A DNA stretch of 63,999 bases, counting the filler, from Bipalium vagum (Eukaryota), in NCBI GenBank assembly GCA_037834085.1. It is 3 parts of 3 records of this genome, joined end to end, with 100 filler letters (N's around TTAATTAATTAA, not from the genome) between each part and the next. Parts side by side here need not be neighbours in the genome. Positions count along the whole stretch, not along the records: positions 1 to 28,444 come from JBBMKC010048249.1; positions 28,545 to 45,011 come from JBBMKC010110260.1; 1 more part is not named here. The stretch is one strand, 5' to 3'. Each line of letters begins with the position of its first letter. The first letter of the stretch is position 1. A program made the position numbers and the translations under genes. Positions 19,744-45,011 of this stretch are shown piece by piece. Below the pieces are notes generated by a model. That model did not search any database, was not told where the DNA came from, and saw nothing but the letters and a program-made list of their open reading frames with translations.

Positions 19744-21140
19744 CAGGCTGTCTCATAAGTTCCCGCGGAAAGTAAAATTAAATATTTCTTAAGCAGATTG
19801 AGATATTTAATAGCTTGCTTTATAAAATTGAAGACAAATCTTTTAATTTTTATTTCATATAAAAATATTTACAACAATTGTTCGAAATGACTACCATTAA
19901 CTGATATACATAAATTCGTTCTTTTTACAATATTTAAAAATAAGGTATTCAGAGCTTCTCTGGTAAAACTTTTTATTTTTTCGGTAATTTTTGTTTACAA
20001 ATCGTCAATATTTTTAATTTTAGATTTGTATATCTTATTCTTTAAAAGGCCCCATAAATAGAAGTCAAGAGGATTTAAATCTGGCGCCCATCGAATTGAA
20101 TCACTTCTTCCAATCCACTTGTTTGGAAAATGAGCGTCAAGATAACGTCGTACATTTGTTGAAAAATGCGCAGGAGCTCCATCTTGCTGAAATACCAGAG
20201 ACCGTACTTTGTACATGTAAGGAGTTTAGTTGACAAATGAATGGGGGACGTAGCTCAGCGGTAGAGCAGTTCATGCGCATGCCAATTTATTTGAACCTAA
20301 CAGTACATTTTCCTCACTTCAAACATAAAACAATATTGAAGCATTGATAGATAATTTTGGCCATTAACAGTCTCATCTTCAAAGAAATACGAACCGATAA
20401 TTTTATTTTTTGACAAAGCACCTCAAACATTAACCTTCTGGGATTTTCTAGAAATTTCAAAAGTAACATGTGGATTAATTTCTGACCAATATCTGACGTT
20501 ATGTTTATTTACTAATCCTATTAGGTAAAACGTTGCTTCATCTAAAAAGAAAATTTTTTCCTGAATATTCACATTTTCTAACATTGAGGCCATGGTTTTA
20601 AACATCTCAACTCTGTCTTGAAAATTCTCTTCATGTAAATCCTGTGTGAAATGGGCCTTAAATGGTTTCAATGATAACTGTTCTCTCATAATTCGATGGG
20701 TTGTTGTTCGCAAAATGGAGCAGGTGATTGTAACAGATCGAACATTGCATTGTTGGTCACTTTCAATAACTTCACTTATTTCCTGAACTTCGTTTTCAGT
20801 GATCAGCCTTGGTCTTCCAGAACGTTCACTATCTTTCATCGAGCCAATCTCACAAAAACGATGAAAAGTCTCTTTTATAGCACTTTCACTTGGTCAAGCT
20901 TTCCCAAATTCGGCATTTAATTTCCGTTTATCAACACAAATTAAGTTGAATTTGACCATTACAAGTACAATTTTGATTCTTAACTTAAAATCAAGCGGCC
21001 TTTGCTAAATTTAATTTTTAAATATTAGAACAAGACTTAGACTTACATACTTTAATATTATATAAATAGTAATTTCAATCGATTGAATTTAATGAAGGAT
21101 ATTTAAGTTTACTTTTCACGTGGACTTATGGAACACCTTG
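19744..21140 (-). mobile_element. Tc1-superfamily element, rosa/DD41D-like, nested in the mariner
   Basis: About 48-bp TIRs flanked by TA. Transposase motifs RSGRP, FFLDEATF, FQQDGAPAH and WAP-DLNPLDFYLWG. D2-D3 spacing is 38, or 41 if the missing RSP is restored. Confidence 0.85.
20216..20302 (+). mobile_element. 87-bp solo LTR carrying a tRNA-Ala-like 5' half
   Basis: Termini TGTAAGG...CCTAACA; perfect 5-bp TSD GTACA (20211-15 and 20303-07). Excision restores the host transposase frame (MFEVRKMYKVRSLVFQQDG). Contains GGGGGACGTAGCTCAGCGGTAGAGC. Confidence 0.85.
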
Positions 21141-21460
21141 TATATATACTTTTTCTTACTTCCGCGAAATAAGAAAGATCCATTTTTGATCGATTGATAA
21201 CAGATGAAAAATGGATTCATTACAGTAATGTATGTCTTACCAAGCTAACCAGCTCCTAACACTTCAAGATCAAAATCCATGATAAAAAGAGTATGGTATC
21301 TATTTGGTGGAATCGCAAAGAACCTGTAAATTTTGAATTGTTGCCTTCTGTCGAAACAATTACATCTAATCTGTACTGTGTACAATTAACACTGTATTTT
21401 GGAATAAATAAAGAGCTCTTTAAAAAAAAACCTTTTTTGCTTAAAATAGGCAAGAACTTT

Positions 21461-22130
21461 GGACAATTTTTTGACCTATTACAACATTGTAGGTCAAATT
21501 ATACACATTGGGTGATGAGCAGGTCATTTTTTAGACATTGCATAAATTAAACTTATATTAAGATCATTTTATACAATAATTATTGTATTGTACATATTAA
21601 AGATTGAAGAAACGATGTTAAACCACAAGGCTAAAGCTCATCGACCAAGGTCTCCATCCAAGCAATTCTGGGCCTTATTAATTGCAAATTGCAGCTACAA
21701 GCCTGAGATTTGAACCAAAAATAATATCTTTCCAATCATATACGAAATAGTTAGACAAGGCAGTCACTGATGAGGCAAGAGTATGTCGTGACCTAAACAA
21801 TACATATATGCAAAAATCGGTTTGTCATAAATATCACTTTGTTGATTATGACCGCAATGTCCACATCAGAACATCGAACGCTGCAACAAGATCAAAGAAA
21901 GGCTGAAAGCTATGCATGGAGCATATAATCACCTTAGAGTTGATTTTCTTCAATACCATAATAGCTTTGAAGAAACTGTGAATTTGTTAATAAAAATATA
22001 ATTTTTGGTTGTCAATTTTATCTTTCTTGTTATTATTGACATTGGGTTTTCATTGTAGGTCAAAAAAACAGCATAGATAATTTTGTAGGTTAAAAAAAAT
22101 ATTGTTACTTTTAGGTAAAAAAAATTGTCC
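21461..22130 (+). mobile_element. Merlin (IS1016/ISXO2-like) DNA transposon, decayed
   Basis: TIRs GGACAATTTTTTGACCTA / TAGGTAAAAAAAATTGTCC; perfect 8-bp TSD AGAACTTT. Transposase remnants IEETMLNHKAKAHR, IFPIIYEIVRQG, VTDEAR, HFVDYDRNVH-QNIER. Confidence 0.85.
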
Positions 22131-25100
22131 AGAACTTTCTGTTCAACCTAATATATACGGTATTATGAAAAACAAAACATGTAGATAGTTTTATGATTCA
22201 TATATTAATTAAAGTTGTGTTCTTTATTGCCTAGCACCATTTATAAAATAATAACACAAGTCTAAAACCTTTATTTAATCACAATCATCAATAACAAACT
22301 GTCTCTATAATTTTTCGTCATTTCACCATACACCATGCTATGCAAAAATTAAAATAAATTATAAAGAGTAAAAGTCATTGCTAAAAAATAAAACAACAGA
22401 TTAATATAAAAAATTATTACTATGAATATATCATGAATAACGAAATAGAAAAATTATAATCTGAAAGACAAATCTGTTTCTGAAATACCCACTGTCTTAA
22501 GCAATTTCTCATTAAATACCTAGCTCGCTTGAGACCCGATCATAATATACTCAACCTTTCAGCTTGTGTACTACAGCGCTCTAATAATGCCAAAGTGTAT
22601 TTTATGTTTGATCTCACTAGTTTTGGAGCTCTTTGGTATCTAACTAGGATATAACCCCCCAAAATTAAAAATAATTCAAATCAGACCAAAAGAACTGCGT
22701 TCAATACAATATATTGTCACTAAATTTGTCTGGTGTGTTTCTCACCCGACTCCCATGCAAACAAACTTACTTGAAATTGATATCAACGATTATTACTTAG
22801 TTCATTTACTTTAATATTTATAATTTTACAATTTAGCAGGCCTTTAATATCGGCCCTTGTAAATATTAGGCTGAGTTGAAAAACTCAAACGGTTGTCAAA
22901 AACTATTAAATACTGTAAATCGATTAGGTTGGCTATTGACTTTTGAGTTATCAGAACTATTTATAAAAACTCAAAAACCATTCTCATAATATTTCTGTAA
23001 AAGATATTAAATAGAGTGGTCATTTTAGGAATCAGAGATCAAGGCGTATAGTGGAATTTTAGGCTCTTTTCTAAGTTTTCTCATTCTTTTCCCCATTTCC
23101 TTCAAGTTTCTGTTGGTTCTTTTTGAAATATATCTTTTATTTAACTCTAGTGATTAGGGCGATAGTGTGATAACCTAAACCCTTGATAATTTTTTAAAGA
23201 TATATCCCCATGACTTTTAATCATACTAATACTGAATTTTACAAAAACCCTCAGACCATTTAAGTCCCATTTGAAGATTATACGATAATACCTTAAAATT
23301 CTAAACTCAAATTGCGTTTTGTAAATTAAAACAAAATCACGCAAAGTTCATAAATATTAATTTATGAATGTATTATTAAAAGAAATATAATTTTTCCATG
23401 TTCCGAATTTCCATATAATTAATTATATTTTTGATTGAATGTTGATTAAATAGTCTTTCCAAAAACAATGCAAGATCTATCATTTGGCAAAAGATCATGT
23501 GTAAACAGCTAAATTCGTATTTGGAAATTATACCATACTCACTATACTCTTCAGTCTATACGACTTCGGATATTCAACTGTTCTACCTCGAAGACCTTGC
23601 TAAAAAATCTTGAAGTTCTTTCAACATAGAGTAGAAAGGCTTGTTGGGTGATAGAAACTAATCATAATTAATGAAGTCGTTGAACTTAAAATTGGTAGGA
23701 CCAATTTTATAAACAAACATCATCAATTATGGTAATGGTTTAATTTTATGATGTCTTTAGGCAAAGCCTAAGTTATTACATATGGTATAGTTATATATTA
23801 TTTATTTATATAATATATAACTAATTATTCAGTGACAAGACATTAAAATTAGCAAATTTTAATTTCACTTAAAATCCGAATTTGGAACCATAAAAAATTT
23901 ATAAATAAAGAATAAAAACAACTTTCACTTTTTTTACTTAATATTCTGTGAAAATTGACATTCAGATTTTTAGACCACACTTAGCACTATGAGAAAACGA
24001 ATGATCGTTTATGGCCGATGTAGACATTTGCGTGGAAAATGAAATTTTATCAACTGGGAAACCAAAAATAACATAGCTGATATATTTGATCCTGTTTTGT
24101 TTATATTGTCACATAATCAGATCATCGATCACGCAGTATTTTTCATATTTACAATTTAATTTGTCACATTCCTCATAGAAAATCTCGGCTGTTTTCATCG
24201 ACAGCAAGATGAAGATTTTACATGAAATGTTCATTTGTTCGCATTAATAAATTCATAAAAGCTTACCTTCATTAAATATTTTATAATTATTTATTTTATA
24301 TTTTCATATTACTTGTTTCGATGAAATAGCACTTTATCCTCTAAATCAATTCTAATACATTATTTAATTAAAATTATTATTTATCTTAAATAAATGAGAT
24401 TATTTTAAAATTATTTTTTTAAAAAAATACACTAAGCAAAGAAATATTTTAATAATATTTTTATGATTAAATTTTTTCTGTTTATAATTTTAAATTTTGA
24501 TCATCCTGACTCCATTTTGAATTCTATATTAATTTGTTTGAATCAGTTGAAATGATTTCTTTTCATGAATTTAATTCCTTTGATCAAATCCTTTGAATAA
24601 GAAATAGATGTAATTACTATTTATAAATTGCTATTAAATTTTATTTATTTTTTCCAATATTTTCTAATATTTTAATTATTATTATTAATATTAATATTTT
24701 ATTAGTAATTATGGAGAATATTAAATATTAATTTATTTATTTATTGTTTTATAATATAAAATAGTTGTCAAAACATATCAAAGAAATTTAATTAAACTTC
24801 ATCTAATTATGTCAACACTGTACATATCACGTTTACTAACACAAATATATTTATTTGTTAATTAAATTTTTATTAAATATTTTATTAATTAGTTTTAATT
24901 AAACTAATTTCAAAAATAATTCAGAAATTAAGAAGATTTTTCAGAATATGTAAGTTACGTAATAAAAAATTCATTTTAAAGATAAATAAGTAATATAAAT
25001 AATGAAAAGGTAATCGCTTAATGCTACTTCGATAATAATAAATTTTTTGATAAATATTATTTATATTTTATAATTTATGTAAAGAATTTATAAAAAAAGG

Positions 25101-26443
25101 ATGTTTTTTTCAAATTTGGAAATAATTATTAAGCATAAAAACCCAATTTAATAAATTTCGAAATCAAGAAAAATGTGTAAATCCATTTTAGTGAAGGAAT
25201 AATATTTCTTTTAAAAATTACTTCTATTAAATCGTGTAATTCTTTTCCGGTTATAATATATCTATCTAAAGTAGATAAAAGTAAAAAAACCATTATATAA
25301 TTGATTAATATTGATATTTTCAATATCACAAATATTTCATTAAAACAAAATATCACTTCAGTATTAATTGTTGTAAATTTAACAGGTACATTTAAGGAGT
25401 TCGGTTTTTCATTTTTATTTTATTAAAATTATTCGTTTTGCTGATCATACAAGATTTTTTAAATGAATTATAATTCGAAAATACTACTTTAAATTTTGTG
25501 TAATAATGATTTTTTATCTTTCAGGTAATTTCATTAATCCATCTTTATGAATTATCTTATTTTTTCTAGAATAGGGTAGCTTTTATAGGTTCGTCAGACC
25601 TAACGTTTTCTGTTCAGATAGTTCTGTATAAAGAGAAACAGTTGGTAATCTGTAATCAAAGTCAGAACTTTATATTCCAATCAAGTTTCAATAATTTCTG
25701 TTACCTGACCAAAGAGGTGTGGGAATGTGAGGAAACATCACCTCTAAGATTTACCAATTCTGGATCTTAACATAAAAATTTTAAAATTCTTAATCAAAAT
25801 TTTCTTTTCATTATCAATACCTTCATTAAAATTTGATTAAATTTCTTATTGACATTCACGGAACCTAAATAATATAATTTCAATTCATATTTTAATAAAA
25901 TGATATTAAAATAATTTATTTTGCAAAATATTAATATTGTTAATGGTTAATTTTAACATCACTTTTCATTAATTTTTCTATATTTATCTTTATAATATTT
26001 TAATGAATAAATAACCTAACTTTATAAATCTTATTTATTCACATCTACGTATACCAATATACAATTTTGTGAATTTTGACTTAAATAATATTTATGTGAA
26101 ACCGTACCGTCTGTAACCGGAACAGGATGTGATCATAAATCTGGAAATATTTACTAAATTTTAGAAATTTTACTAAATTAATATTAATTATTCTACCACT
26201 GATTATATATATGTGTGTGTGTAACTATAAAATTAAAAGACAATATTAAAGAATGAAAAAATGTAAGAACCATAATTAACATTTTAAGTAAAATATTTTT
26301 GTCTCATCACTATCTATTACTTTATATAAGTTTTTAAAGAATAAATTTGAGAAATATATAATATAAAAAATCACTTTAATAAATATCTTAGGTTGGAGTT
26401 AATTTAAAACTTATCGGGTAAAACTTGTTTTTATTATTAAATA

Positions 26444-27702
26444 CAAGGTGTGCCAGAAAAATCCGGACAAAAAAAAATTTAAACAAACAAAGATATATTA
26501 AATAATATCATAATTATTTAAGCAATAGCCATATTTTTTGATTAAAAATATGTTCCATACTTCTATTGCTCGATATAACCACCTCCTGATTCTATGACCT
26601 TGAAGGTTCTCTGCCTGAAGCGAATGCATGCCTTCTTTACATGGATTTGGTTCAATTAAACAAACGCTTTTGTAATGGAATTCTGTAGAGATGTCAGATT
26701 AGGGTGTCTCGACTTGTTAGTAACCCTTTTAAGAAAGCTCCATACATAGGGTTTAAATCTGTACTATTTCGGGGCCAGAATTCCTTGCTCCAATGGAACA
26801 TTATCGACAACCAGTTTTGAACTAAATAACTTGTATGAGCGAACGCTCAATCTTGTTGAAAGATGAACAGTCGTTCAGAAGCAACGATTTGCATCCTGGA
26901 CTTCACTACTGTACTCAGAATCTGTACGTAGACTTCCTTTGTGATAGTTTCACCCTTTTTCAAGAAATTTGGGGTCATGACATTACCTTGACTAAAGAAG
27001 ACGCCTATTACTAGAACATTGGCTGGAAACTTTGTCCTTGGTACGATTGGGACATTTTCAATATTGTGGGCAAGCCAACGATCATTCCGCCGATTATTTT
27101 TAGCATCAACTGTAAAAATTTTTTCATCAGAGAAAAACTTAAGACGACTCGCTGCTTCATTCTTCAGTGATTTGAGTAACAAGTTACACCCAACAACACT
27201 TTTAGTTTTCGTAGCCTCAGACAGCATTTGTCGTATTTTTAGAACGTGAGAAGCATATCTTAGATCTTCTTCAGCTACCCAAAGTTGTTGCCAATTTTCG
27301 AAGCGATGTCCCAAGATCTTCCATTATTAGCTGCTGAACTCTTTGAACAACTTCCGTGGTCCTTATTTTCCTTTATTTATCATGTATTATTCTTTTAGGT
27401 GTACTAGAGGTTCATTCAGCCATCTCCGATCTCCGATATCTTCGTGCGACACCGTACAATGTCGATCATGGGTACCAAAGAAATTAATTATTTCAGCAGC
27501 GTTTTTCCAGCGCTAAGCTTTCGAGAATCGCGACTCTTCGATAAATTTCCAAGCCATTTTTTGTAAAATTAACATTTTGAAAATTGTGCTCAATTTACCG
27601 AAAAATATAACATGTTTAAACAAATATTAACTCGTATAATTAAAATCAAGCATAAATATAAATTTCAAGTAAATTTTGTCCGGATTTTGCTGGCACATCT
27701 CT
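26444..27702 (-). mobile_element. Full-length decayed Tc1/mariner, maT/DD37D-like
   Basis: TA-flanked TIRs CAAGGTGTGCCAGAAAAATCCGGACAAAA. Motifs FFSDEKIFTVD...NRRNDRW, FIFQQD*A, FWPRNSTDLNP. Confidence 0.85.
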
Positions 27703-28444
27703 TAATTGTCAAATTCAAAAAAATTCGTTAAAGTTTTAATAATTATTTAATTAATTTTTTAAAAAATATATTTAGTCATTTATTTACTGAATTTTTTAAT
27801 TATTTTATCTACTAAGAAAATCTTAAATTAATCATTTGTCTCTTATGAATTTGATCAGCTAACGAGTTTGACGAAGATCCTTCTAATCTAGTAGAAGAAA
27901 ACCCTAAGTTTATTATACAAGTAAATATCTTTTAAATACAATATATATTTCAAAATCTTTATATTTCATTTCAGAATACTTTTTAAATTCATCTCTTTAG
28001 CCTCGAAATATTTTGTAAAATCCATGGTTACTTTAAATTCATGCACAAATCTTCATAACTCAATATTGTCTAAGATAGAGAATTTTCTCAAATTAAAGGA
28101 ACGCTTCATCATTAATATAATTATTAAAAATAAAGTCCTATTAATTATTTAAGCAATTATTTCTTGAAAATCTTTAATTCTTGTATAATTAAAGTCGTTC
28201 ATTTGCTGCGTGAACTTTCATGTGAGGTGGAGAGATAAGTATTTAGGGACTTCAAATGATATAATATTATTAAAAATGTTGAATTATAAGAATTTGCATA
28301 ATTATCTATACAGTACATAAATCAGAATGATCAACTCATGCGAACTTCAAGTAAAAATTAGTTCTAATCTTATTAATTAAGTAAATTTTAAAAATAAGTA
28401 AAATGTTAAATGAACAAATAGAATTCTAAGGAAAATAAATATAA

Positions 28445-28544
28445 NNNNNNNNNNNNNNNNNNNNNNNNNNNNNNNNNNNNNNNNNNNNTTAATTAATTAA
28501 NNNNNNNNNNNNNNNNNNNNNNNNNNNNNNNNNNNNNNNNNNNN
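28445..28544. other. Assembly gap with synthetic linker (N44-TTAATTAATTAA-N44)
   Basis: Exactly 100 nt; an identical construct lies at 45012-45111. Confidence 0.95.
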
Positions 28545-28714
28545 AAATAAATAAAATAAATAAATAAATAAAATTACACAAATTATATATTATTTTTTAT
28601 ACAACAACTGAATCACTAAATAATCACTAAATAACCAATAATGTTATTATTTTGAAAATTTGGATTGCTTTGGGATCGAAGTGTTTGAGGGGTTTGATTG
28701 AATTGGTTGGTCCG

Positions 28715-29482
28715 AAGGTGGGAGTCTCCACAGATCAGACCAGCAATGGACCAACAGTCACCATAATTTCTTATAGTGCAAATTTGGCTTTGGGAAATGT
28801 TTCTGAGCTTTATTTTTATCCAACCATTGTGCCGAACGACGCCGATTGTCCCAGAGAATCCATTTCTCATCACACGTCACGATTCGATTGAGAAATGGGT
28901 GGCGGTTTTTGCGCAAAAGCAGAGAAAATTCCACTTCGCAACGACGATTTTTTTGTTTTTCGCTCAGGTCAAGTGGCACTCACTTATCTATCTTTTTCAC
29001 CTTTCCAATCTCGTCTAAGTGACGAATGTGGTATGATCAACCGCAAGTTCCGCTCCGATTTCTCTTGTGGATTTTGATGAATCAGCTTCAATTATTTTCT
29101 TTAATTTATGATTGTCAACTTTACATGAACGACTGCGACCATCCTCATCTTCAAAGGTATCATCTCCCTGATGAAACTGTTTAAACCAACGTTGCACCAT
29201 ACGCTGATTCACAGTTGCAGGACCAAATGCATTATTCATTTTGCGAGCCGTTTCAGTAGCATTTGTGCCTAATTTGTATTCGTACAAAAAATGGTGCGAT
29301 ATTGATATTTTTCCATATTCGGTTAAATCACCTAAAAAAAGATAATTAAGAAATATTTTAAATAATTTATAATAAAATTTACTTTGTAAAAATTTTACGT
29401 TCAAAGATTTATCAAAATATTTATTAAAATGAATAAAATTAATGAATTGCCAAAAAAGGACATTATTTTTGCACCAACCTAA
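28715..29482 (-). mobile_element. 3'-truncated mariner
   Basis: TIR TTAGGTTGGTGCAAAAATAATG. Motifs FLYEYKLGTNATETARKMNNAFG...QRWFKQF and FLNRIVTCDEKWILWDN. Confidence 0.85.
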
Positions 29483-29557
29483 TAATTAGACATATTTAAG
29501 CCTGGTTTGATGAACCATTTAGTCGCAAATTAAGTCAAAAATAGTTTTTTAACAGGA

Positions 29558-30373
29558 TTGTCATTATTTATGTCTTGTAAGAGATATTTTTTACACTCGT
29601 TTTTTATAATATTTTCAAATGAGATAATGAAAATAAAAAATCAGTGCCTTGCTTCTGGTAAAAATGCTTTCACAATCTCCGAAGTTTATTTCAATATTTC
29701 ATTTTATCAATATAAATTATCAATAAATAATATAAATCAGATATTAATGAAGAATATGGAGAAAATGGAAAATTCAAAAAATTTACGAGAAAAGGAATTA
29801 CAAAACTTAAAGTGCAAAAGGCATAATAATTATTGTCTTTTAGAATGGAACAGAGACAGTGAAATATGTTTCGAAAAAAATAATGAATGTTTTAAAGATT
29901 CTTTTATATCAAAAAAGAAAGATCGTTTAAGATACACAGATAATTCCTCTTTAGACATCAAACAGCTAAGTGATAAATATCGATCAGGTCTTGATATAAA
30001 TTTAACGATAGATACTCAAGACTATGACATTTTCTGCAAGTATGAAATACAAAAGCTAAAAAATCGCTTAGTCGACACTTTGGGAACTGATACTCTTATG
30101 ATGCACGATTCTCAATTTTTGAGATATGCATCAACAATATTTCAGGCCAAAGAAGATTCAAAAATCAAGTCAAATGAAAAAAAACTTAAAAATATTGAAA
30201 AACTAAGAGTTGATCCTATTTCTCGGATGGATATCATAAAATCAAGGTCAAAGAAAGCCAAAACAAAATTCGATGCTAATAAAAAGAAAAAATTATCACA
30301 AAGAAAAGGAGATGTTTGTGATAAGAAAACAATCGACAGAATTAATGAAGTTATTAAAGCACCTCTTAATTAA
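29558..30373 (+). CDS. Orphan Lys-rich ORF (likely start ATG near 29747 or acceptor at 29741); unknown function
   Basis: 271 open codons in very AT-rich DNA; no transposon motif recognised. Confidence 0.5.
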   Translation: MSLFMSCKRYFLHSFFIIFSNEIMKIKNQCLASGKNAFTISEVYFNISFYQYKLSINNINQILMKNMEKMENSKNLREKELQNLKCKRHNNYCLLEWNRDSEICFEKNNECFKDSFISKKKDRLRYTDNSSLDIKQLSDKYRSGLDINLTIDTQDYDIFCKYEIQKLKNRLVDTLGTDTLMMHDSQFLRYASTIFQAKEDSKIKSNEKKLKNIEKLRVDPISRMDIIKSRSKKAKTKFDANKKKKLSQRKGDVCDKKTIDRINEVIKAPLN

Positions 30374-33300
30374 ATATTTCAAAAAGAATATAAGTGATTC
30401 AATAAACACCACGCACGAAATATCATTACAAATATGTAAAAATATTAAATGCATTATTAAAACAAAAGATTTCAAATATTGAAATTAATATTTTATTATT
30501 AATGCCAAGAATATATACTTATCATAAAAACAATAGATAAAGGTTAATTATTTATTGTTTTCAACGTTTATTTCTTTATATATATACATTTCTTTATATG
30601 CATGTATAGTTCAATTTTCGATGATATAATAAATATTTTAGTTCTTTTCAAATCATCAAAACAGCGAGATATTTTATTGTAGTAAACAATAAATTGGTTT
30701 TAATTTATTTTCTAGTTATTTAATTCTCTGTATTTATTAATAATAAAAAATTGTAAGAGATTTTTAATTAATACTGAGATGATCATTAAAGTCTATACAC
30801 AGATGCTTAAAAGTAAAAAGAAAGAAAAAATCTCATGTAATTTTGTGAAAAAAATTAATAATTTATTTAATTGAAAAATGGCTTAGATTTTCGTTTATCG
30901 TTTATGCATTATTAATACTCTAAATTTTCAATTAATTCCCCAGTCCCAAATAAATCCCCACCAAGCCTTTTTTGCAATATGAGCTTGAAGATGATTGAAA
31001 ATCGAATGGATATAGTCTCCATTAGTTCGTGATCTGATGTATTTGATATAAAAAATTGAGAATATCTGAATAAATTTTTGTTTTTTATTTATTATTTGGG
31101 GTTTTATTACTGTACTTTTATTAACAAATTTAATAGTTCCCCATCGGGTATTTTTTGAACCTCGGGAGACTAATCCCCTTGCGGAATTAATCGAAGATTT
31201 AGAATATTAATATTCATTTTTTCAATTATTAGAAATTTAAAATATTATCAATTATTAAGTCCATATCATAATATTTCAAAAGAGGGATACATAGGCTCAA
31301 ATCCTATAATACATTTTTTTCATTTTAAATTTTCATTTTATTATAGAGTACTTTGAAGTCATTATTTATGAAAGAACTGTACACAAACACTATTCTTGAT
31401 ACATTGAAAAAAATTTCCACTTATGTGATTTTCTGACTCTATGATGGATATTTGACTTAGTTTAGATCTAACTGTTAATTTATTTAGGAAAACTCATGTA
31501 TAGCCATGATTTAGGAACACTTGAGAAATTACAGAAAATCTGAAATAATGAGAAACCAAAAGATTCAAGAAGTCAAGAGTAACATGTCTAGAACACGAAA
31601 AACGTTCAAGAATAAATAGCGGAACTATAAAAAAAGACATTTGTATAGTTTTCGAAAAAAGTTCAAATTGCTAAAAAAGTGAAAAATTTTTTTGTTCTGT
31701 CGAAAAGTTTAATTTCAAACTTTTTTTGAATCAGTTAAAGTATTAAATTATAATTAGTTTCACAATCGCTTGCAGGTGAACCGAACTCAAAATAAAATTA
31801 AAACTTTTATTTGAGAACCTTTGAGAATAGTATTGAAGTTTGACATGAATTTTTCTTATACCTTTTCTTCCGGATTTCATCTTCAAAAAATTGTAAAAAT
31901 GTCCTTTTATGATCCCATAAATATAACATTTTTATAATGCAGCTGATTGACTTAGTTGGATTATGTAAATTCATTAATTCCTTATCATAATCTTAATCAA
32001 ATTTTGGAGCCTATTACAAGTTTTTCAAAAAATTTTTCAATAATCTTTTAAAGTGACAAATAAAAAATTGTTATAAATTACTTCAGATTTGATTCAGATA
32101 AACGAAACAAATAAATTTCCAGAAATGTTTACTTAATCTTTTAAATATATGTATTAAAAATAGAAAGTGTTAAAAGTTATATTAAGGCTTAAAAATCTTT
32201 CAGAAGCAGGCGACTGGTTGGCCATTCACTCGTCTATCTATCATCTTTGATCTTTACAGAATTTCCATTTATTTTGATTTACGTGACGAAGTCATACAGC
32301 CAAAATAGCGAAGCCTACAATTAATTTAATTACTAATTAACAGTAAACTGTTAATTGTTTTATGACCATTAATTCTAATTAATCTTAATTGATAAATCAT
32401 CATCTCACAACTTGTCTTACAATATTAAAAATTATGTAGTTTTTCGAGAAGTAGATTAGTAAAACAATTTAATAAAACATTTGGTTGAACTTTGATATCA
32501 CTGCAGGTCTTTTGTCAATGTTAATTTAATATTTATCATTTTAATATTTCTAATGTTATACATTTTTTTAGAATCCAGGCTTAGGGTGATTTTTTTAATT
32601 AGAGGAGCGTAGCAACTTTAATAGCGACCACTTTGGTTAAATTTAAATAATATACTATATAGTTACAAAAGTAAAGTTAAAAATTAATATTAGTTTGAGA
32701 TTAAATTAATGATTTAAATAAAGAATGAGATCTATTGAGATCCAAACATTTGGCTCTATATTTTTGAAAACTTGGATTAATCGACAATTCTTTAAAAATA
32801 TATTCTATATTGTAATAATTTTATTCGTATTTTAGAACAATTTAATAAATTGTTAACAAAATTAAAGTGCTTATTCTCAGACGACATATGGTTTGAAAAA
32901 TATAGTCTGACAGAGGAATTTCGGGGAATCGTAAAATCTAGCAATTTTAAAAGATGAAAAACCTAACAAGATTATCAAGACATCCTTTTACTTAAGCAGA
33001 GATTATATCAGATAATATAAAGAAATAAGACTCGGTCAAAAAAAACATGATCATAATTCTCTTGATTTACCAAACTTTGGTTAATAAGAAAAACTTAGTG
33101 ACATAATTGTTTTGGGATTTATAACTCATTTTATAAAGATAGAAATTAAATTTTAAAGAATTTTATTTTCATTTCTAAAATTAAATATTCAAATTATTTT
33201 TATTGGTAATACAGTTAAACTTCTCTATAACGACACCCCTCGGGAACAGCCAAACTGTTGTTATATAGAGGATGTCGTTACATGGAAGTTCCATTATATA

Positions 33301-36300
33301 AATCAGAAAAAATAACAATAAAACATAATTCATTAAAAATGGATAATCTGTGTTAATAATAAATCAATGTTATAATGAAGATGTTGAACTTCTTCTGGAT
33401 AGAATTTATAAATCTGACTGGATTTTTTCAGAAAATACAAAAACACGTAAAATGATTGAAAAATGTAAATTTCGTATGTCACTTGAAAGTTTTAAAGCAA
33501 AATTAAAACAATTTAACTTTTAATAAATTAATAATTAATGATTTTTATGATTGGTTTTAAAATTGTTTTAATACCTTTTCAAATTGTTCACGAAACTGGT
33601 GATTTTCAGAAATAATTTTTGGTCTTTCTAAAACTTTAAAAAAAACTAATGTCCCAGGTTTCGTCACATTTTAGATTTCAAAAATAGAAAAAATGCAAAG
33701 TATAAATGTGAAATATGTAATTTAATTGAAGCGCAATATATTAAGTTTATTGTAATATCGATAAAATAAAATTATTTTCTTGTAAATCTAATACACGAAT
33801 TTATTGGTCAAAAGATTGGAGTTAGGTTAATGTATCTCTTCTCTTTTAGATAGTATTAAATGTATAGAAGTTAGGAACCGTTAAAGTACTCTAAAATGTT
33901 AATGAATGATTCTACTTCCAATAAGTAAAAAATTATTTGAGCAATCTCTACGTTAAATTTAAAATCACATGCAACATTTGAGAGTGAGGTCCTGATAAAC
34001 TATTAAACAATCATATTACCTATACACATTTATAATAAAGTGCTTAATTATTTCTTGTCTTGGGTTTTAAAATATATTTTTATTGCATTAGCATATCCGA
34101 GAAATGAAATAGGAAACGCTCTTTGATGTTATCTGAAGGCTAACATTGCTAAATAATTATTGGTATAAGTTAAATACCATATCCATTTTAAAAACCATTT
34201 AAATAAATTTTTTAAAACTTAAATACTGGTTTCATAAAATAAAAGAAAATTAAATTATTGTTCAAAAATGTGAATATCGGTATAGTCTGAATTGAGTATG
34301 AAATGCAAATTTCCGCCACAATTGCGCTCTACACGCTGTGAGTGAGTCTTTCAAAGCATCAATAGTCATTTTATATTCAGGTCAGAATATGACCATCTCA
34401 ATATATAGACAACTACTGAAACACTTTATTGTAACACCACATTCTCTTTGGAGAATATACCATCTCGATAACTAATTCACACATCTCAGACCTTCCCGGG
34501 TGTAATAGAGTAATGAGTACTTAAATTGACACCCAATGTGGCTACGATATCCATTTAAAGTTAAATCACAAAGCTTTTGGGTTAATATCTAAATTTCCTT
34601 ACAATATCAACTCATTTACATGAGCATTTAAAATAGATTTGAATCCAATGCTTATTAAATATTATGGAGTAAAACAATACTTTAAAAATCAATCCAGATA
34701 ACACTGTGGACCTTAAATATCAATTAATATATTTTTCAGATTTCTTGAATTTCATTAAGTTCAAATTACTTACAAATTTGTCAGGCACTATTTAATTTAA
34801 TATTCTTTAAGTATTACGTAATTTTTTTCGTTTAGAAAAATATATAAATATAATGTTAAACATGATAATAAAAGGCAAAGCTCAAAGAAAACTATCTTTA
34901 TTTTGTGAATATTTTACACAATACCTAACTTACTCATTTCTGTCCTTATCAGAGAATTACGATGGTTACCTTTTCAATTAGTTGGGTGAAAATCTTTTTA
35001 CAAAGATCGGCATAACGTCTTTGCCAACTAGCAAAGTTTTCTGGTCACTAGCATTCAATTTCCGTTTACCATAGTTTCTGTTTCTTCTCGTATCTTATAG
35101 GTTGATAACATCGTTCCATAAAATCCCTTTATATTTGTCTAATAATTGTTCTCTTTTCTTTACGTTTGTTACTGCCACATCATTGAATTCATAAGTGAAG
35201 GTTGAATGTAATAAAATTTTTTAAAAATTGTGATCATGTCCACTGAAAATCACAGAAGAAATATTGTAACAAATTTTGACATTGCCTCGTGTTAATTATA
35301 ACATTTCATTTTCAGAATGATAAAAAATAATTTAAATTTCGAAACAATTTTCAAAATTCTTAATATTCTCTTATTTTTGAATTCATACTTATTCGTTTAA
35401 AACTTAAGTTAAAGTATTAGATTTATGAGAATGACTCCGGTTGGTTTTAATAAAAAACAAAATGCTTTTCTTAGTTTTATTTAAAATAATTTAAAGATTT
35501 TATATTATTAACAAAGACCGTCGAATGGATTCATAGAGCGAAATAAATGGAAATTCGAAATATTGAGGAATTCATTTTCAACATCCTGTAAGAATAATTT
35601 GCAAAAAAATTATTTTCTGTCTTTGAGGGCAAATGGTATTTCGACTTTCAATGTCCTTTTTAATCAATCTATGTGGGATGTGATTGCCTAATTTTCTAAT
35701 CATTCCTGTTTGTTGTATGTTGTGGGTTGAAAGCTAATGTAACATTATATAGAGGCCCGTTCAGATTTGTGCTTGACATGTGTTTTTATTAAGTAAAATT
35801 GATAATTTTTATATCCACAGACATTTTGTGGTTTCTGATTTGGCAAAGTCAATCTCTCCATATCGTATCAAATGAAGTATGTGCTCCTTACATTTCTACA
35901 AGCTAGCAGTGCGTTTCTGCTACTGTTGTCTTTGCAATATAGTGATGTAAAAATAGTTCCAACAAATATTGTTTATTCGAAATAAAATTGGACATTTTGA
36001 AATAATGTATTATTTAAACGAAACATATTTAAATAGTCATTAATTTTACAAATAAATATATTTTGTGAACCCCGGAGTTTTTCTCTTTAATAATACAGTA
36101 GTTTTCGAGCTACTTGAAATTTAACGGATCGCAATAGATAATAGAAAGTAATTCATTTAATCCAAAACACAAAATATTATTTCATGTGATCTTATCCATT
36201 TTCAATATATTTCCAAATTATTGAATGTCCTTGTAAAATAATCAGTATTGGCATCAGCGACACTTTGCCAACATTCTAAGAGTTTATTAATCCCGTTTTT

Positions 36301-38484
36301 AAAGAGTTTGGATTGCGGAATTCAACAAGATTATTGATGTCAAAAAATTGGTATTCTTTAATTAATATAATTTTAATTGAAATTAATTTAAGTATTTATT
36401 TTAAATATACAACTTTCACAAGTACAACTTTAACATTTTCAATTCTTTTTTTTTTCAAAATTATAAGATTTACATAATATTCGTTTTACATTACAGCAGT
36501 TTTAATTTAATTTAAAACTAATTTTGGAACTATCTTACAATTGATTGCCACAATATAATTGACAAACATTTTATTTTAATATTCATCTCGTTTAATGATG
36601 ATATTTTTTCTGATGTTCATTTCTATTTTAACCTTCATTACTTCTCTAACTACATTTCAAATTATATAATGGAATGTAATGATTACCCCTTAAGATTATG
36701 TAATAATAACGAGAGTCACCCTAAGTTCACAACCTCCAATCAAATGATCAAATGATTTAAATTGAATAATAAAAAAACCGAATTAATCAATTATTGAATA
36801 TTATTATTTATCGTTATTATTGAATTTAATTTATCCACATTACTTTTAATTTATATCTCATTCTACTCTTCATATTCAACCTATGCTTATTTTTATACAT
36901 AATTATTTTGATGATTTAAATTATTTAATTATCTAAAAATTTAATTATCTAAATATTATGCAAATTAAATAAAACTCGGTTAATAGATAATACACTTTAT
37001 GGAGGAACAAAATTATATTAATCAAATAAAATATGTGGATTTAACCTTTATCTTAAAAACATTAATTAATTAAAAATACGGTTGAAATTCGATTAAAATT
37101 TTGCATTTAAAAGTTCTTTTGCTTATGAGAATCTGTAAAAAAGGCGCTCCTTGGAATCACACTAGTAAAAAAATGTCAAGACCATTAACATAACTTCTGA
37201 TAATCGGACCGATTCTACAGTGTTTGGTATCCTGGGCAGGTTGATGTTCCTGTTGTCCAAAACAGTCAACAGTCATCGGAACTTGTAGTCAATATGTTGA
37301 CTGGACAGATAAATGCAGCTGGTAACATCTCTTAGTCTTCAGAACATCGTCAGAAAGTGCGGCAGTTAAATAATAATAAATCCATTCGAATAATTCACTA
37401 AGTATGAAGTTTTATTTCTCAATGTAATTTCTGTTCAGAGCTCAAACTAAAGTTATTACTCGACAAGAAATATTGATTTTAGTTAAAATAATAACAAAAT
37501 TTAAATTAAAAATTTCGAAACTCCTTCAATTTTATATAATACACTTTTTGTATCATAAAGCAGTTAAATATAATTAATTTATTAAAATATGTATATTCAT
37601 ATTTTATCTTCTTGAAACTTAGATAAGTATAATCGATCTACTCTTTTAATTAAATAAATAAAATTAACCATCGGTTTATAATAATTAAATTCTTTTAGAA
37701 ATATATAATACATTTGAGACTTCAGGATATTAAATTTCTAATTAATTTGAATACTATTTATAAATAAGGAAACGTAAAATTAAGGAAATGTAATTAAAAA
37801 GTTAGATAATTATGATTTTTATTGGATTTTAAAAAATAATTTTTAATATAATTTTGCTTAATTATTTTATTATAAAAGTATGAATATTAGCATAAGCATA
37901 ATTAAAAACGAAAAATATCCAATTGAAATGATAAAAATAAAAAGTCCTATATTATATTGCTTTTTACTATAAAAATTAATTAAATTTGGTAAAAGATGAA
38001 CCATTTTTTATGGTTTATATTTGAATTATTGTTGGGTTTCTTTTTTCTAAGCCGAAATCTTATATGTAATTCCTGTGCACAATACATAAAATAATTTATC
38101 TGTTTATCAATTTGTTTTCTTATACTGAGAAAATGTGAGCCTAATTCCTATGAGAAGAAATGACGAAATATTAATTGAAGATATGTATAAATATTCTGTA
38201 AAATCTCAATCTTTGTGAATTAGGTGGACTTAAATGCTTCTATGCAAACAAAGAAAGGAATATCAGAAGTTTGATCTCCAAGTAATACATATTGTTCCAT
38301 GGTTTTCTAATCCGAAACATATCTGTGTGTTCTGCTTAGTCAAGAGATAATGTAAATGAATCGACAAGAATTTTCATGGTTTTTCTCTATTTTGGCGCAG
38401 TATTTATCCTCTGTAATTGTGTAACCCCCTTTAAATATGCCGTAATGGATTTTGTGAGATATATTGATTAATTTTCAACTAACA

Positions 38485-38494
38485 TGGCGACCAC
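38485..38494 (+). promoter_or_regulatory. Primer-binding site TGGCGACCAC (tRNA-Arg-type 3' end)
   Basis: Immediately follows the LTR-terminal CA; complementary to a ...GTGGTCG-CCA tRNA 3' end. Confidence 0.65.
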
Positions 38495-38618
38495 ACCATG
38501 ACACCAACCAGCAGGCGAAGTCTCAAAAGTAAAAAAGTAAATGAATGAAATGGAAATTGAAGTAAAGAGACTCGGAGCGGTTAAGGGTATGGATGTGAGA
38601 TAAATTGAAAATTAGTCG

Positions 38619-38670
38619 GGGGATGTAACTCAGCGGTCAGAGCAGTCTATGCGCATGTTATGGGTTGCAC
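38619..38670 (+). pseudogene. tRNA-Ala-derived 5' portion (A box, CGC anticodon position)
   Basis: GGGGATG TA ACTC AGCGGTCA GAGC A GTCTA TGCGCAT GTTAT GGGTT GCAC. Confidence 0.75.
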
Positions 38671-40499
38671 AATAGTGACAATTTTGAAAGTGTTGGAAGT
38701 GCGAATAATTGTTCACATTGTTGTTTGTGTGGTTCTCGATGTGGTAAACGCTCCACTGAGTGAAAAAAGGCTACCACTTTCCATTGTTCGAGGAAGTGTT
38801 GTGTAGATCAACATTTGGAAAAATTTTAAAATTCATTTCCTTTAAAAGATTATTTTAAATATTCAGTTTTGCAAGGAAATTTCCCACATGGGTTACATCA
38901 GGTTTTGGAAGAGAAGAGAGAACAGATCATGTGTAGAAATTGTAAATATGATCAAAGTGAAGAGGCCGCGACCTACCGCGAAGATGGCAATAATATGCCT
39001 ACGGATATTTTAAAAGTATTGCAGTGCCAGATATATGATTCTGAGCAAAATTTGAATTCATTGTATGCTCAATACATCAAGAATTTGTCAGATTTTTGTA
39101 ATAATGCTCATTTAAAAACTGAATTTAAAAACAATTTTCAATTAAATGTCACAAATAAAAATGATACTAAAGTTAAGGCCGATTTAATAATAATAATAAA
39201 ACGAGCTAATGATAATGTTGATTCTGAAAGGATTTTTAAAGTAAATGAAATTTCGTATAATAATAATAATAATTATATTATCAAAAGTAATAATGATATT
39301 TTTAATAATTCAATGCTAACACGTGTTTTGTCCAAACGTGAAGAGGTTATTTTTCAATAATTACCCACTGTTACAAAGTATGAACAAAAGACGCGATAGT
39401 TTTCAAAAATGTAAATTATTAAATATTGAAATTAAAAAAATAAGTAAAATAAATGACATTTTGAACATAAAAGATCTAAATAATATTTCCTATAAAAATG
39501 GCAACTTCAGATGCAATGTAAGATTAGATAAAAATCCTTCAGCATCAACAGAAATCAAAAGTAATTCCGAAAAAATCATAACGTCACATCTGATTAATCA
39601 GATAAATCGCCTATTCAATCCTGTACACGATAATTGTAACAGCATTAAGGAGCAGATTAAAATAGTTTAATTATAGGTCAAAAATTGATAAAAAAGCATT
39701 TCGCTTCCTGCTTGGTAGATTGGAGCAAAAGCGTAAATCACTATTATTAAATAAAAATAAATTCCTGATTTTTAAAAATTCTCGCCTGCAATGTCTTGCA
39801 GAGCTTGAGAAATCTATTTTTGATTTTGTTGACTTCATAATCATTCAATTTTCTGCTTTTGTAAATTTTAAGCCATCTTATTTGATACCTTATTTGAATA
39901 AGATGTCTAATGTTCCTGAAGTTGATTGTAAGATTACATCTGAAAATCCTTCAAAATCTTCTCCATGTGAAATATTTTCACCTAATATCTGTGAGACTTC
40001 TCCCATGGACATGTATTGTCCAATCTGCACTGAGAGACGAACTATTTTAATCTTGAGAACAGATTTTGCTCACTTTTTAATCTGTCAGCCTTGCCTTTAT
40101 AGCTTGAATAAAAAATTTAGAAACTTTAGCAAAAGTCAAATTTTAATCAATTGAAACAAAATAGTAATTGGTCTGGTATTGCTTCTGAAAATAAAGTAGA
40201 TACTGCTAATAAAGATAATGATTGTTTAATCTTATATCTGTTGAAGAAACTATTGTTAAGATTCATATAAAAATCCTGAAACTTGATTTTTTCTACATTG
40301 ATTTTTTCTGACATTGTTAAGAGTTCTCTTGAAAATGTAATTCCGATTGCAAAACAAACCAGAGGACAATTAATTGTACCTGATTCGAATTGACAACTTG
40401 TGTCTACAACTGTCCGCACTGTCTTCAATTCCATTGATTTGACAGGTTTAGATAGCACTGATAGTGAGGAGATTGCTGAAAATAGCTACCGGCCTTTCC

Positions 40500-40900
40500 A
40501 GTATAACTCTCTATTTACTAATCTTGATATTCACAGTTTTTTGTGTAAATTTGTTTCGAATAAAACAATTTTTTGTTTAAACCCTCTCGTTGTTTTCGGT
40601 CTTGCAAATAGCAATCAATCTTATCCAAGACTTTGATCAGGCTCTTTTTCTGCTGATAGATTGTTTTGTCCTTTAAAAATTCTAAATAAACACAGGATTG
40701 CTTTCGTTTACTGCAAGACTCATCTAATTTCATTTTATTTCGATCCACTTCCATCTGCGTTTATTCCTGATTATGTAAAAAAACAGATCCAGGTTTTAAA
40801 CACTGCTCTAAATATTGCTTTTGGGATTGATATAAAGTAAATAAACAAGACAATGGCTACGATTGTGGTTCATTTATTGTTGCATTTTTTCAATTGATCA
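40500..40900 (+). pseudogene. Ulp1/SENP-like cysteine protease domain 1 within the LINE
   Basis: CPLKILNKH(R)IAF (His at 40691), YFDPL (Asp at 40742), QDNGYDCGSFI (Cys at 40864). Confidence 0.8.
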
Positions 40901-41149
40901 GCAAAAATTTTGAAGCTGATACTTTGGTTATCTCTCGTAAATTTATTAGTGAAATCAGGAAAAAGCTTTCAAAATTCAGATTTCTCTCAATGTGGTGTCC
41001 CACCTTTCTGATCGTGGTAATATAGATAACGTAAATTATAATGATAATAAAAGGTTAAAAAAATTCCAACTTGCACAAAACCGCTTTCGTTTTCAAATTC
41101 TTTGAACGATCTTTCTTCTCTTTTGTTTTTTAAAGATGATCATTTGATT

Positions 41150-41545
41150 GCCTATTGCTCTCACTATATCAAATGTAAAGAAATTCTTCTTCTTAATCTA
41201 TTGATTAGTAAGGCATTGGTGAATGAAGATTTGACTTTAATTAGCAATTACATCATGTTTAAAATGTTCAAAGTTTGGAAATGGATTTTTGTCCGTTCTT
41301 TCACAATGAAAAGTACTGGGTACTCTTTGCCTGTAATTTTCATGATAAAAGTATTTTTTGTATTGATCTTAATCAAGATTTGTCAAAAACTGATCTCTTT
41401 CCATCAGTTAAATTAATTGCCAAATTTATGACAATGTTTTCCATTAATCAAAGTTTGTTTTCGGCTGTTTCAGAAAGTCCGGCAGATCAGAAAATTAAAT
41501 ATAAGAAAGAGAGAGGTCCTCTTATCTGTGGATGTGATGTTTAGC
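41150..41545 (+). pseudogene. Second, degenerate Ulp1-like domain within the LINE
   Basis: FCPFFHNEKYWVLF...IFCID...ERGPLICG parallels P....HW.L...D...DCG.FI; the His and Cys positions are substituted. Confidence 0.55.
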
Positions 41546-44500
41546 TAATTCTTAGTCTTTATTCAATATTAATTGTTACAAAATTCGAAAAAACGCTAAC
41601 CGTTTCTTAAAATTATTTTCTAAATCAAAGACATTAAAACCGATTCGTAGCTTTGTGTCACCGCAAAGTACTTTTGTTTCTCGTATATCAATGGCTGCAA
41701 GTCTTGTTTCTACTTGTTTGGAACAAAATTTGTCTAACGATGATTTTGATTCAAAAATTGTCAAATATATATACGAATTGAGACAGATTAAAGAAAAGAA
41801 CTTATTTCTTGGTAAATCTTCAGGTCAAAGATTTCAGGTCAACCTAAGAAAAGTTACCGATTCTCTCCATCAACTGCTTTTAAGATCATTGTTGATAAAA
41901 CTGTAGCTGATTGCACTCCATCATCCGATGATGTAATTAAATATTACAGTCAAAAATCTATTGTTCCTACTGCTTGTGACTGGTTTAAATTTTTTGACAA
42001 TAATCTTTTTAAACATGGTCCTCAGTTTGATTTTCATCTAATCGATTCTGATGTTTAGAAATCAGTTTTAAAATCATGTAAAAATTCTGCTCCTGGTATA
42101 AGTATATCATACATTCTGATATCAAATATTTTGATCCGTTGTTAAATATTTATGGTGCTCTTTTTAATAGAATTATTGAGAATGTCTCTATTCCATCCAG
42201 ATGGAAATCATTCTCAACATTGCTTATTCTAAAGTCTGTGAAAACCGGACAATATCACGATATAAATTCTTGGCGTCCAATAGCTTCATTTGATTGTTCT
42301 TATAAATTATTTGCTTCGGATTTGACTAAAAAGCTTTCTGGTCGGCTTAATAATAATAATCTTTTACATTCTATCCAAAAGAGTTTGGGTCTTTTCAATG
42401 GGTGCTCTAAGCATAATTTTCTGCTTTGTGATTTAATTGACCGATATCACAGAGAACTGCAAATGCCCTTGCATGTTGTTTTTCTTGATGTTGCTGATGC
42501 TTTTGGCAGAATTCATATCTTTATCATAACCGGTTGTCTTCTGAAAATTGGAGTTGGCTCTCAATCGTGCAGATTGATATCTAGCCCTGTAAAGTAATTG
42601 TCAATCATACTTTATGTGCGGCAATCTTACTACAGATCCTATTAAAATTAATGTGAGTGTTCGACAGGGATGCCCGTTATCTACGTTGTTGTTTAATGTT
42701 TGAATGAACCAAATATTAAACAGTCTCGATCAAGTGTTAAACGGTGGCGTTCTGATTCGTGAACACCAGTTGAGCGCGCTTTCTTATGCAGATGATGTCG
42801 TTCTTTTGGCCACAAGTCGTCCACACACACAAGCTCCCGGATCGCGCAGTTAAAGTGTTATCTTGGCTTCATTTGAGATTTCGGCCTTCAAAGTGTGCTT
42901 TTGTACGTGTTCCACAAGTTCAAAATGCATATCCTTTGAAATTTGCTGATTCGTCAATTTCAACATTGCTGTTAATGAGGCATATCGATATTTGGGTGTT
43001 GACTTTTGTGAAAATCTTCATTCACCACCTTAATCGTTATTTGCTGACATTATGGAACAGCTATAAATTATTTCCGAAAGCATTCTTTACCCATGGCAAA
43101 AGTTGAATGCCTATCACACTTTTAATCATTCGCGAATGATTTTTGCTTTTCGGAATAATTACACAACGTTCAATGAGATGACACAAGGAGTCAATGCCAT
43201 TGAACCAAATATTCGACGTCTCCTGAAAAGTATACTTGGTCTTAGAAGTCATTCTTCCATTAAGTACATGTATACTCCAAAATGTTTTGGTGGTGCTGGC
43301 ATTATATCTGTAGTTGACGAATATCTGGTTCAGTCAATTGCAAATATATTTCAGCTCTTTAACTCACCAGATAAAATTACTAGAGATACGACAATCTCTT
43401 CTTTAATTGGTGCTGTCTCAAATCCTGGTCTTTTTAACCGAGTTACACTCGATCAAGCTTTCGAATGGCTTAATCGTGGCGACATTCAATGTCTTCAGAA
43501 TTGTTGGTGGAGGAAGGCTCAATCTGCAATCAACCAGATGGAGTCCAGACACAAGATCAATTTCAAATTCGAGCTAATAAAAGTGAAGCTAATTTATTCA
43601 AAAGTTGTTTCGAAAAAGTTTCACAATTTAATCAATCATGCTTGGAACAGTCAAGCAAGTGTGGGTCGCTTTGCATCAGCAATTGGCCAATCAAAATTAT
43701 CCACTTCTCCAATTTTCAACGGTGAAATATCAATCGCAGCTTGGTATTTCATTAATCGAGCTAGGTCATATTCAATTTAGATCAATGCTCGTCATGGCTC
43801 AAAATTCCGTGGATTGCCGAAAATGCATTGAGCAAGAAGAGACATTGTCTCATGTTCTTGTTAATTGCATTCCGTCAAAATTTTTTCTAAACTGCCGCCA
43901 TAATTCTATCCAAGACTATCTGCCCAAACAAATTAAAGACAATTCAAAGGCCAAAGTCTTTGTAAACGCTGAAAGTCAATACGTCTATTCCACAAAACGT
44001 GTTACCTTCAGATTGATTTCACGGACCGCAAAGTCCTGTATCTTATTGACATTAAATGTCCGTATGGTACAGTGAAAAACATCTATTGGAACCATGAGAA
44101 GAATCTCATTCACTACCAAGATCTTCTGTGTCAGACCAAAAAAGCCCTGACAGATTGGCCCGTTCTGCTAGATACGTTTGCAGTCGGTTGCCTTGGATCA
44201 TGGCAAAAGCGAAATGAGAAAATTCTGAGAATTCTCCAATTTCCTAAATTTCATATAACCAAAAAAGGATATTCTGCGTGGCGTCTAATATCAAATGGAG
44301 TGCCGCGCAATCGAAATTTCACAGAGATGTTGAAAAACAATCAGTAAATTTCTCTGAGCTCCACGCAATTGAAGATGAAAACCTCACTGACAACCAAAAT
44401 CAATTCCTGTCCGATGCTGCTTCTGAAAATCACGACGACTGCGATGATGACCTGCTCCAAAATGAAGATGAAGCAAAGCCATAATATGCGCACATTTATG

Positions 44501-44556
44501 TGAAAACGATTAGGTTCGTGAAAGAAAAAACTTTTTTTTAAAATAAAATTTTGTAC

Positions 44557-44577
44557 GATCGAATCCCGATATCTCCG
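44557..44577 (+). pseudogene. tRNA-Ala-derived 3' portion (B box/T loop and acceptor strand)
   Basis: G ATCGAAT CCCGA TATCTCC G. TATCTCC pairs with GGGGATG, including a G3:U70 wobble. Confidence 0.7.
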
Positions 44578-45011
44578 ATTAATTTTCAATTAACAATATC
44601 TATTTCAGCCAAAAACACTCCCATAGGACGCTGATGATATGTAACAAACCTGTTGCCAAACAAACACAGGCATACTAATACATACACTTGCGGGATATGC
44701 ATTCTTTTCAGACTGAAAAGTCAATGAGAAATAGAATGGATCTTGATCACCATTATAATGTTATGAATCGGCGTATATCGAACGAGATGCGCCTTATCAC
44801 CCAGTGCAGTTCATTGTTCGAAAAAAGAGATATTTGTAATTTTCAATTTTTGAAAAACAGGAATTCAGTTTTGAATGATATTTAAGAATGCATTATGGTT
44901 GACAAATTTTCCGTAATTTTAAAATAAAATTATTGTTCTTAAAGTTGTTTTAATATTTCTACAATAAATATTATTATCAAGAATAAATAATATAATGAAT
45001 TGGGGTAATAT

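Follow-up and report, generated by a model that had tools for sequence, protein, structure and literature searches.

How does a retrotransposon with long terminal repeats (LTRs) that carry a tRNA escape the tRNA-processing cuts, pass the first RNA polymerase III (Pol III) terminator and enter the particle of a helper element? This is an open problem, and the helper dependence of such elements is not understood (Kojima 2024, PMC10886601). A locus that bears on the question lies in a stretch of 63,999 nucleotides from the flatworm Bipalium vagum (assembly GCA_037834085.1), called the window below, which consists of AT-rich eukaryotic contigs joined by runs of N. It contains a miniature terminal-repeat retrotransposon (TRIM), whose LTR we call type A, and, on a separate piece, a solo LTR of a second type, type B; judged from its sequence, this jumping element is a Helenus-type TRIM with a tRNA-Ala-like LTR. 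In both LTR types the tRNA look-alike has complementary flanks, referred to here as arms, and on balance we lean towards the view that these arms form an RNA helix maintained by selection. The window holds three LTR copies only, every one of them damaged, and their parts are as follows.

38453-38484 (+): upstream TRIM LTR remnant; tRNA core and most of the left arm deleted, right arm (38466-38480) and CA end retained
38485-38494 (+): motif resembling a primer-binding site (PBS), starting with TGG directly behind the upstream LTR; putative, called from sequence
38485-38593 (+): TRIM internal region, 109 bp, non-coding, with an imperfect polypurine tract (PPT) before 38594
38594-38658 (+): 5' part of the type A 3' LTR, with TG start, left arm (38603-38617) and tRNA-Ala-like 5' half (38619-38658)
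38659-44558 (+): degenerate long interspersed nuclear element (LINE) of the restriction-like endonuclease (RLE) type (R2 group, NeSL/Utopia-like), 5.9 kb, dead, with many stops and frameshifts
44559-44595 (+): 3' part of the type A 3' LTR, with T loop and stem, acceptor 3' strand and CA end
44577-44591 (+): type A right arm, holding a T4 run at 44583-44586
20211-20215 and 20303-20307 (+): left and right copies of a 5-bp target-site duplication (TSD), inside a mariner/Tc1 transposase frame on the minus strand
20216-20302 (+): type B solo LTR, TG...CA, 87 bp, whose tRNA-like core is missing the variable loop, the T arm and the greater part of the acceptor 3' strand
20234-20242 (+): type B left arm, putative U3, alignable with its type A counterpart as far as 20228
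20244-20281 (+): type B tRNA-Ala-like 5' half, with box A, D arm and anticodon region
20285-20293 (+): type B right arm, followed after a 2-nt gap by three further pairs

The arms of the TRIM (38603-38617 and 44577-44591) are complementary over 15 bp, with 14 Watson–Crick pairs and one G.U, a stem that was equalled in none of 5000 flank shuffles and at none of 5918 random window positions; the energy of the arm duplex is -14.2 kcal/mol versus -4.2 ± 1.9 kcal/mol in the shuffles. It is the LINE at 38659-44558, splitting the LTR, that separates the two arms by 5.9 kb in the window. When the two halves are co-folded as two strands, the predicted acceptor helix continues into the arms, with a single G bulged out. 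In the solo LTR, the arms (20234-20242 and 20285-20293) pair over 9 bp, eight of them Watson–Crick and one G.U. Its core consists of the tRNA-like 5' half, a deletion after 20281 and the last two acceptor bases, followed by the right arm; just two acceptor pairs remain, since that deletion removed the T arm together with the greater part of the acceptor 3' strand. A preliminary description of the stretch had given the four arm sequences exactly where we find them and had proposed that they extend the acceptor stem in both LTR types, which is true of the TRIM, apart from the bulged G; in the solo LTR, the acceptor stem is down to its two remaining pairs. It had also stated that the flanks differ between the types; they do so at 7 of 15 left-arm positions, but are not unrelated, as their alignment, with the tRNA core for an anchor, is free of gaps. 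In the register that the TRIM dictates, the solo stem has a chance of 1.4e-4, or 9.5e-4 over any of nine neighbouring registers (400,000 shuffles).

The differences between the two types are matched across the stem. Four of the inner nine pairs have changed on both sides, at pairs 1, 2, 6 and 9 (C-G/T-A, T-A/A-T, T-A/A-T and A-T/C-G, respectively), two have changed on one side with pairing kept, three are the same and none is broken; the one-sided changes, at pairs 3 and 4, are both in the left arm and swap a G.U for an A-U. When six left and four right substitutions were placed at random, all nine pairs were kept in 284, 686 or 1678 of 1,000,000 trials, depending on the transition bias assumed. 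Cross-pairing of the type A left arm with the type B right arm breaks four of the nine pairs, and the reverse combination breaks three. Both stems contain a single G.U, though not at the same position, and this is more in keeping with pairing at the RNA level than with exact copying of DNA. Past pair 9, 2 nt seem to be missing from the right arm of type B in the one copy available; the type B left arm pairs with the type A right arm at positions 10-13, 15 and 16, and the predicted fold of type B has its three additional pairs after the gap.

Uninterrupted copies of the LTR are found among contigs from one run, X1, which is possibly the source of the assembly and so not independent of it; the figures given here are those of the best-supported rows, comprising the best 15 of 221 joints and the best 6 of 888 loose ends. 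Unrelated DNA stands before the LTR start at 38594 in 249 contigs and behind the LTR end at 44595 in 72, and 109 contigs read past 38658 into T-stem-like letters. Other contigs join 38656 or 38658 directly to 44559-44562, five to nine of them in most such rows; these joints across the LINE, together with the 109 read-through contigs, show that uninterrupted LTR copies exist. An additional six contigs join 38658 back to 38466, representing intact upstream LTRs with the PBS next to them. From the joints and the unrelated flanks it follows that the TRIM family is dispersed in at least hundreds of contigs, that its intact LTR is about 115 bp long and that the LINE landed in the T loop. The depth in X1 is 59,096 over the LTR bin versus 8 and 83 in its flanks, which is not a copy number. 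Metagenome matches to an 18-nt pattern of the right arm were also considered (17 loci), and these are chance matches, since a tRNA-like context is present in 0 of the 17.

It is well established in tRNA processing where RNase P and RNase Z cut, and 5'-3' cyclization, the end-to-end pairing of LTR-element RNAs, has been linked to reverse transcription. In Cassandra, both the start and the end of the RNA fall inside the LTRs' small-RNA genes (PMC10886601), and by analogy we infer that Pol III would start near the first base of the tRNA look-alike and stop at the T run. The left arm would then be U3, present only at the 3' end of the RNA, and the complete right arm would be R/U5, present only at the 5' end, and therefore a complete helix could form only between the right arm of the 5' LTR and the left arm of the 3' LTR. 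Such a helix, 13-15 bp in full, would clamp both ends of the genomic RNA. It would start at the RNase Z site behind the 5' mimic and at the RNase P site before the 3' mimic, so that both cleavage sites would probably be masked, and it would place U5 and the PBS beside the 3' repeat, probably aiding minus-strand transfer. For the uninterrupted stretch 38466-38617, pairing of the upstream right arm with the downstream left arm is predicted with a probability of 0.96-1.0 for 12 pairs and 0.71 for the 13th, and the ends of the internal region are predicted to pair around a purine-rich loop of 42 nt (38485-38600, z -2.05, 3 of 200 shuffles as stable). The pairing extends 5 bp past the T4 run, and a 3' end terminated there could not provide these pairs. 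Complementary flanks are also seen in some published animal Helenus LTRs, for example as perfect 8-bp pairs in Helenus-2_CeFu and Helenus-2_PeMa; here and below, published Helenus sequences were inspected by eye in a partial supplement of PMC10886601. Taking all of this together, we consider it somewhat probable that the arms, as complementary flanks of the tRNA look-alike, are a selected RNA helix.

Several points weigh against this reading. Taken alone, the type B stem is weak, and without the register it is unremarkable: with the register left free, 2.0% of 5000 shuffles reach a stem of 9 bp, as do 128 of 5924 random positions, and the duplex energy of the solo arms has a P of 0.087. The register, for which the tRNA core is the anchor, was settled on after inspection of the sequences, and the left-arm identity of 8/15 between the types has by itself a P of 0.08. 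The comparison is between two decayed sequences and hence covers one evolutionary branch; all three LTR copies of the window are affected by damage, and G.U pairs are also a product of ordinary transition decay. In the long-range helix, pair 14 is an A.C mismatch in this copy, and the fold of the whole stretch 38466-38615 has modest stability (z -1.92, equalled by 9 of 200 shuffles). By eye, 26 rust-fungus Helenus LTRs are without an obvious long closing arm, and therefore closing arms are not universal in Helenus. Finally, template switching can perfect inverted repeats without selection (PMC3820800). On the points raised in the preliminary description, pairing better than that of shuffled flanks is found for the TRIM (0/5000), while the solo stem is weak alone (2.0%) and stands out at the TRIM-set register. 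Covariation between the two copies is supported by the sequence comparison, with four double changes and no broken pair among the inner nine, albeit in two copies only. Selection for the long closing stem, as proposed there, is likely: the matched changes argue for pairing kept by selection and neutral template switching weighs against it, and we do not grade it higher because there is a single two-copy comparison, the register was picked afterwards and correction by template switching is possible.

Among the alternative explanations, neutral template switching between the imperfect inverted-repeat arms, during replication or reverse transcription, fares best, although we regard it as unlikely. 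It would copy one arm onto the other and therefore give double changes without selection, and hairpin-linked deletions are indeed frequent in the family, as seen in the upstream LTR remnant and in several joints at or near 38617. However, such copy-correction should result in exact Watson–Crick pairs, yet the G.U in each stem is at a different position, and it does not account for a stem that, in both types, begins precisely at the edges of the tRNA. A more doubtful proposal, which is compatible with an RNA helix, is that the stem forms locally in the 3' LTR only and makes the weak T4 run stop Pol III there, with the run in the 5' LTR being read through. An element with identical LTRs must pass its first T run and stop at the second, both type A LTRs have a T4 run within their right arm, and human Pol III terminates at short U tracts if there is RNA structure close by (10.1101/2020.09.11.294140); however, type B has only T3-A-T3, the tRNA fold already supplies structure near the run in both LTRs and five pairs lie beyond the T run. 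It is improbable, for its part, that the arms act at the DNA level as an extension of the terminal inverted repeat of the LTR, which would offer two similar ends to a helper integrase: the arms are indeed just 9 nt and 4 nt from the LTR ends, but integrases contact the outermost nucleotides, which match only over TGT/ACA, and with 7 of 15 left-arm positions differing between the types it is pairing, not sequence, that has been retained. It is very improbable that the type B stem arose as an accidental match in AT-rich flanks, with no shared architecture, since the ease of finding 9-bp stems (128/5924 random positions) and the existence of a single type B copy are set against a P of 1.4e-4 to 9.5e-4 at the type A register and 284-1678 per million under the mutation null.

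A second feature common to both LTR types is a perfect palindrome in the anticodon region, of 8 nt at 38649-38656 and of 10 nt at 20272-20281; palindromes of at least 8 nt occur at 621 of 63,424 window centres. The same 8-nt palindrome is present in both copies and needs a G at the normally invariant U33 position (numbering by eye). In rust-fungus Helenus, 25 of 26 complete LTRs have CATG (15) or CTAG (10) at this place, extended to 6 nt in 12, and these counts are not independent because the families are related. Palindromes of 8 nt are found in several wasp LTRs and in one nemertean LTR; bivalve Helenus is mixed, with at least 4 nt in 16 of 31 LTRs and at least 6 nt in 7 of 31, and the palindrome is not convincing there. 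Helenus lineages thought to have arisen separately have different palindromes at the same place, as judged by eye. In Ty1, the palindromes PAL1 and PAL2, close to the RNA's 5' end, drive dimerisation (PMC6844567). By analogy, the palindromic anticodon loop is possibly a dimerisation signal, although for Ty1, an autonomous Pol II element of yeast, dimerisation is experimental, whereas here it is predicted only and would take place within a tRNA mimic. We tentatively suggest, as a bolder and rather doubtful extension, that the tRNA look-alike has been remodelled into a replication signal, in which the arms would clamp the ends of the RNA and shield the mimic from RNase P and RNase Z, and the loop would dimerise. 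As a separate observation, both broken tRNA 5' halves end within 2 nt of the palindrome.

Helenus elements are tRNA-containing TRIMs, described as 'TRIMp3' (Kojima 2024, PMC10886601), and the TRIM of the window resembles them in being short and non-coding and in its pair of TG...CA LTRs, whose tRNA-like core includes box A and box B; between the LTRs, where Helenus has a PBS and PPT, it has a PBS-like motif and a candidate PPT. The two LTRs are evident from the LTR ends at 38594 and 44595 and from the contig joint 38658-to-38466. The tRNA-like boxes were read by eye: box A is present in both LTR copies, and the T loop and acceptor strand are found at 44559-44576 and in the contig continuations, the acceptor 3' strand of the type A 3' LTR giving a G3.U70. 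ARAGORN and Rfam called no tRNA in these broken LTR copies, and the tRNA numbering is by eye. Types A and B match each other in nhmmer with an E-value of 1.6e-5 to 2.3e-5 within the window. With an internal part of 109 bp and an LTR of about 115 bp without the LINE, the element is well below 1 kb and within the published Helenus ranges (PMC10886601). The candidate PPT is an interrupted purine-rich 19-mer ahead of 38594, seen in one decayed copy. Many solo LTRs have been published for Helenus (PMC10886601), and a solo LTR is found here too. It has a 5-bp TSD, within the 4-6 bp of Helenus, which is confirmed by the transposase frame that it cuts (...EVRKMY on one side and YKVRSLVFQQDG... on the other). 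The animal Helenus elements with a listed TSD all have 4 bp, whereas the one testable copy here has 5 bp, as do fungal and plant Helenus and the animal Ajax elements (PMC10886601). A TSD of the TRIM copy was looked for and none was found; a candidate at 38319 was rejected because 38200-38420 is single-copy. The five bases before the downstream LTR recur ahead of the upstream remnant, separated from it by 3 nt (window 38445-38452). Cassandra forms tandem arrays, and the TRIM copy may lie at the end of a decayed array of that kind.

In the accessible parts of PMC10886601, flatworms are absent from the Helenus text and from Table S1, the Helenus tRNA is treated only as a promoter, and the terms 'inverted', 'hairpin' and 'palindrom' do not occur in the main text. 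In a search that left subscription journals and Repbase entries outside its range, neither flanking stems in Helenus nor flatworm Helenus turned up as the subject of a paper. A parallel is Cassandra, which also has a Pol III small-RNA gene in its LTR and whose self-complementary LTRs are predicted to form a conserved LTR-to-LTR super-hairpin (PMC7215508). The preliminary description had drawn this comparison, and it is apt, although Cassandra is a plant element derived from 5S rRNA, whereas the core here is tRNA-Ala-like, with short arms of 9-15 bp that begin at the acceptor stem. That description was without the class name Helenus, the LINE within the TRIM stem and the half-missing tRNA of the solo LTR; all in all, its observation is partly confirmed and its interpretation partly supported.

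The LINE interrupts the T loop of the tRNA mimic, and about 13 nt of its target are missing. Of 10 pieces scanned against Pfam, three were without a match; the matches obtained were to Peptidase_C48 (E 5.3e-5), RVT_1 (E 2.5e-4) and zf-RVT (E 0.0086), and the LINE also matched the R2 protein 9nl2 (E 0.0096). Protein searches with the LINE returned no homologue at E <= 0.001. Its order is Ulp1-like protease piece, reverse transcriptase, CCHC knuckle and restriction-like endonuclease piece, so that the arrangement defining RLE-type LINEs, a reverse transcriptase followed by a CCHC knuckle and the endonuclease, can be recognized, with weak E-values and in broken frames. NeSL and the planarian LIN families likewise combine a reverse transcriptase, a zinc knuckle and an RLE, nematode NeSL and Utopia-1_TSP have an Ulp1-like protease, and the last 14 nt of the LINE resemble, by eye, the 3' end of LIN26_SM from Schmidtea (PMC4640811, including its S6 Fig). 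LIN15_SM and LIN25_SM target tRNA genes, and NeSL-1_TV, which is specific for tRNA-Pro, inserts in the tRNA T loop no more than a base away from the insertion site seen here (PMC4640811). Unlike in these elements, the target here, seen at one junction pair, is a mobile tRNA mimic, and the copy is dead. This LINE may have tRNA T loops as its target, with the numerous LTR copies serving as landing sites, and run X1 contains multiple copies of it.

Elsewhere in the window, a nuclear RNase P RNA gene lies at 34271-34553 on the minus strand (Rfam RF00009, 80 bits, E 4.3e-21). Decayed pieces of mariner/Tc1-like transposases, recognized by eye in translations, are at 19329-19568, 19998-20893, 21260-21547, 26850-27323, 29018-29485, 51115-51399 and 54513-54761. 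A Ser/Pro-rich open frame of 206 codons (13220-13837, plus strand) is probably a host exon, and a second one of 118 codons (63156-63509, plus strand) is host-exon-like, with longer proteins yielding no homologue.

The element class and the idea of self-complementary LTRs are already in print. Our findings extend Helenus to a probable new phylum and to another TSD length, and elements of this kind would inflate the tRNA-gene counts of host genomes. For the question of how such an element avoids tRNA processing, passes the first terminator and reaches its helper's particle, the paired arms and the palindromic loop are concrete candidate cis-signals in an RNA of about 300 nt.

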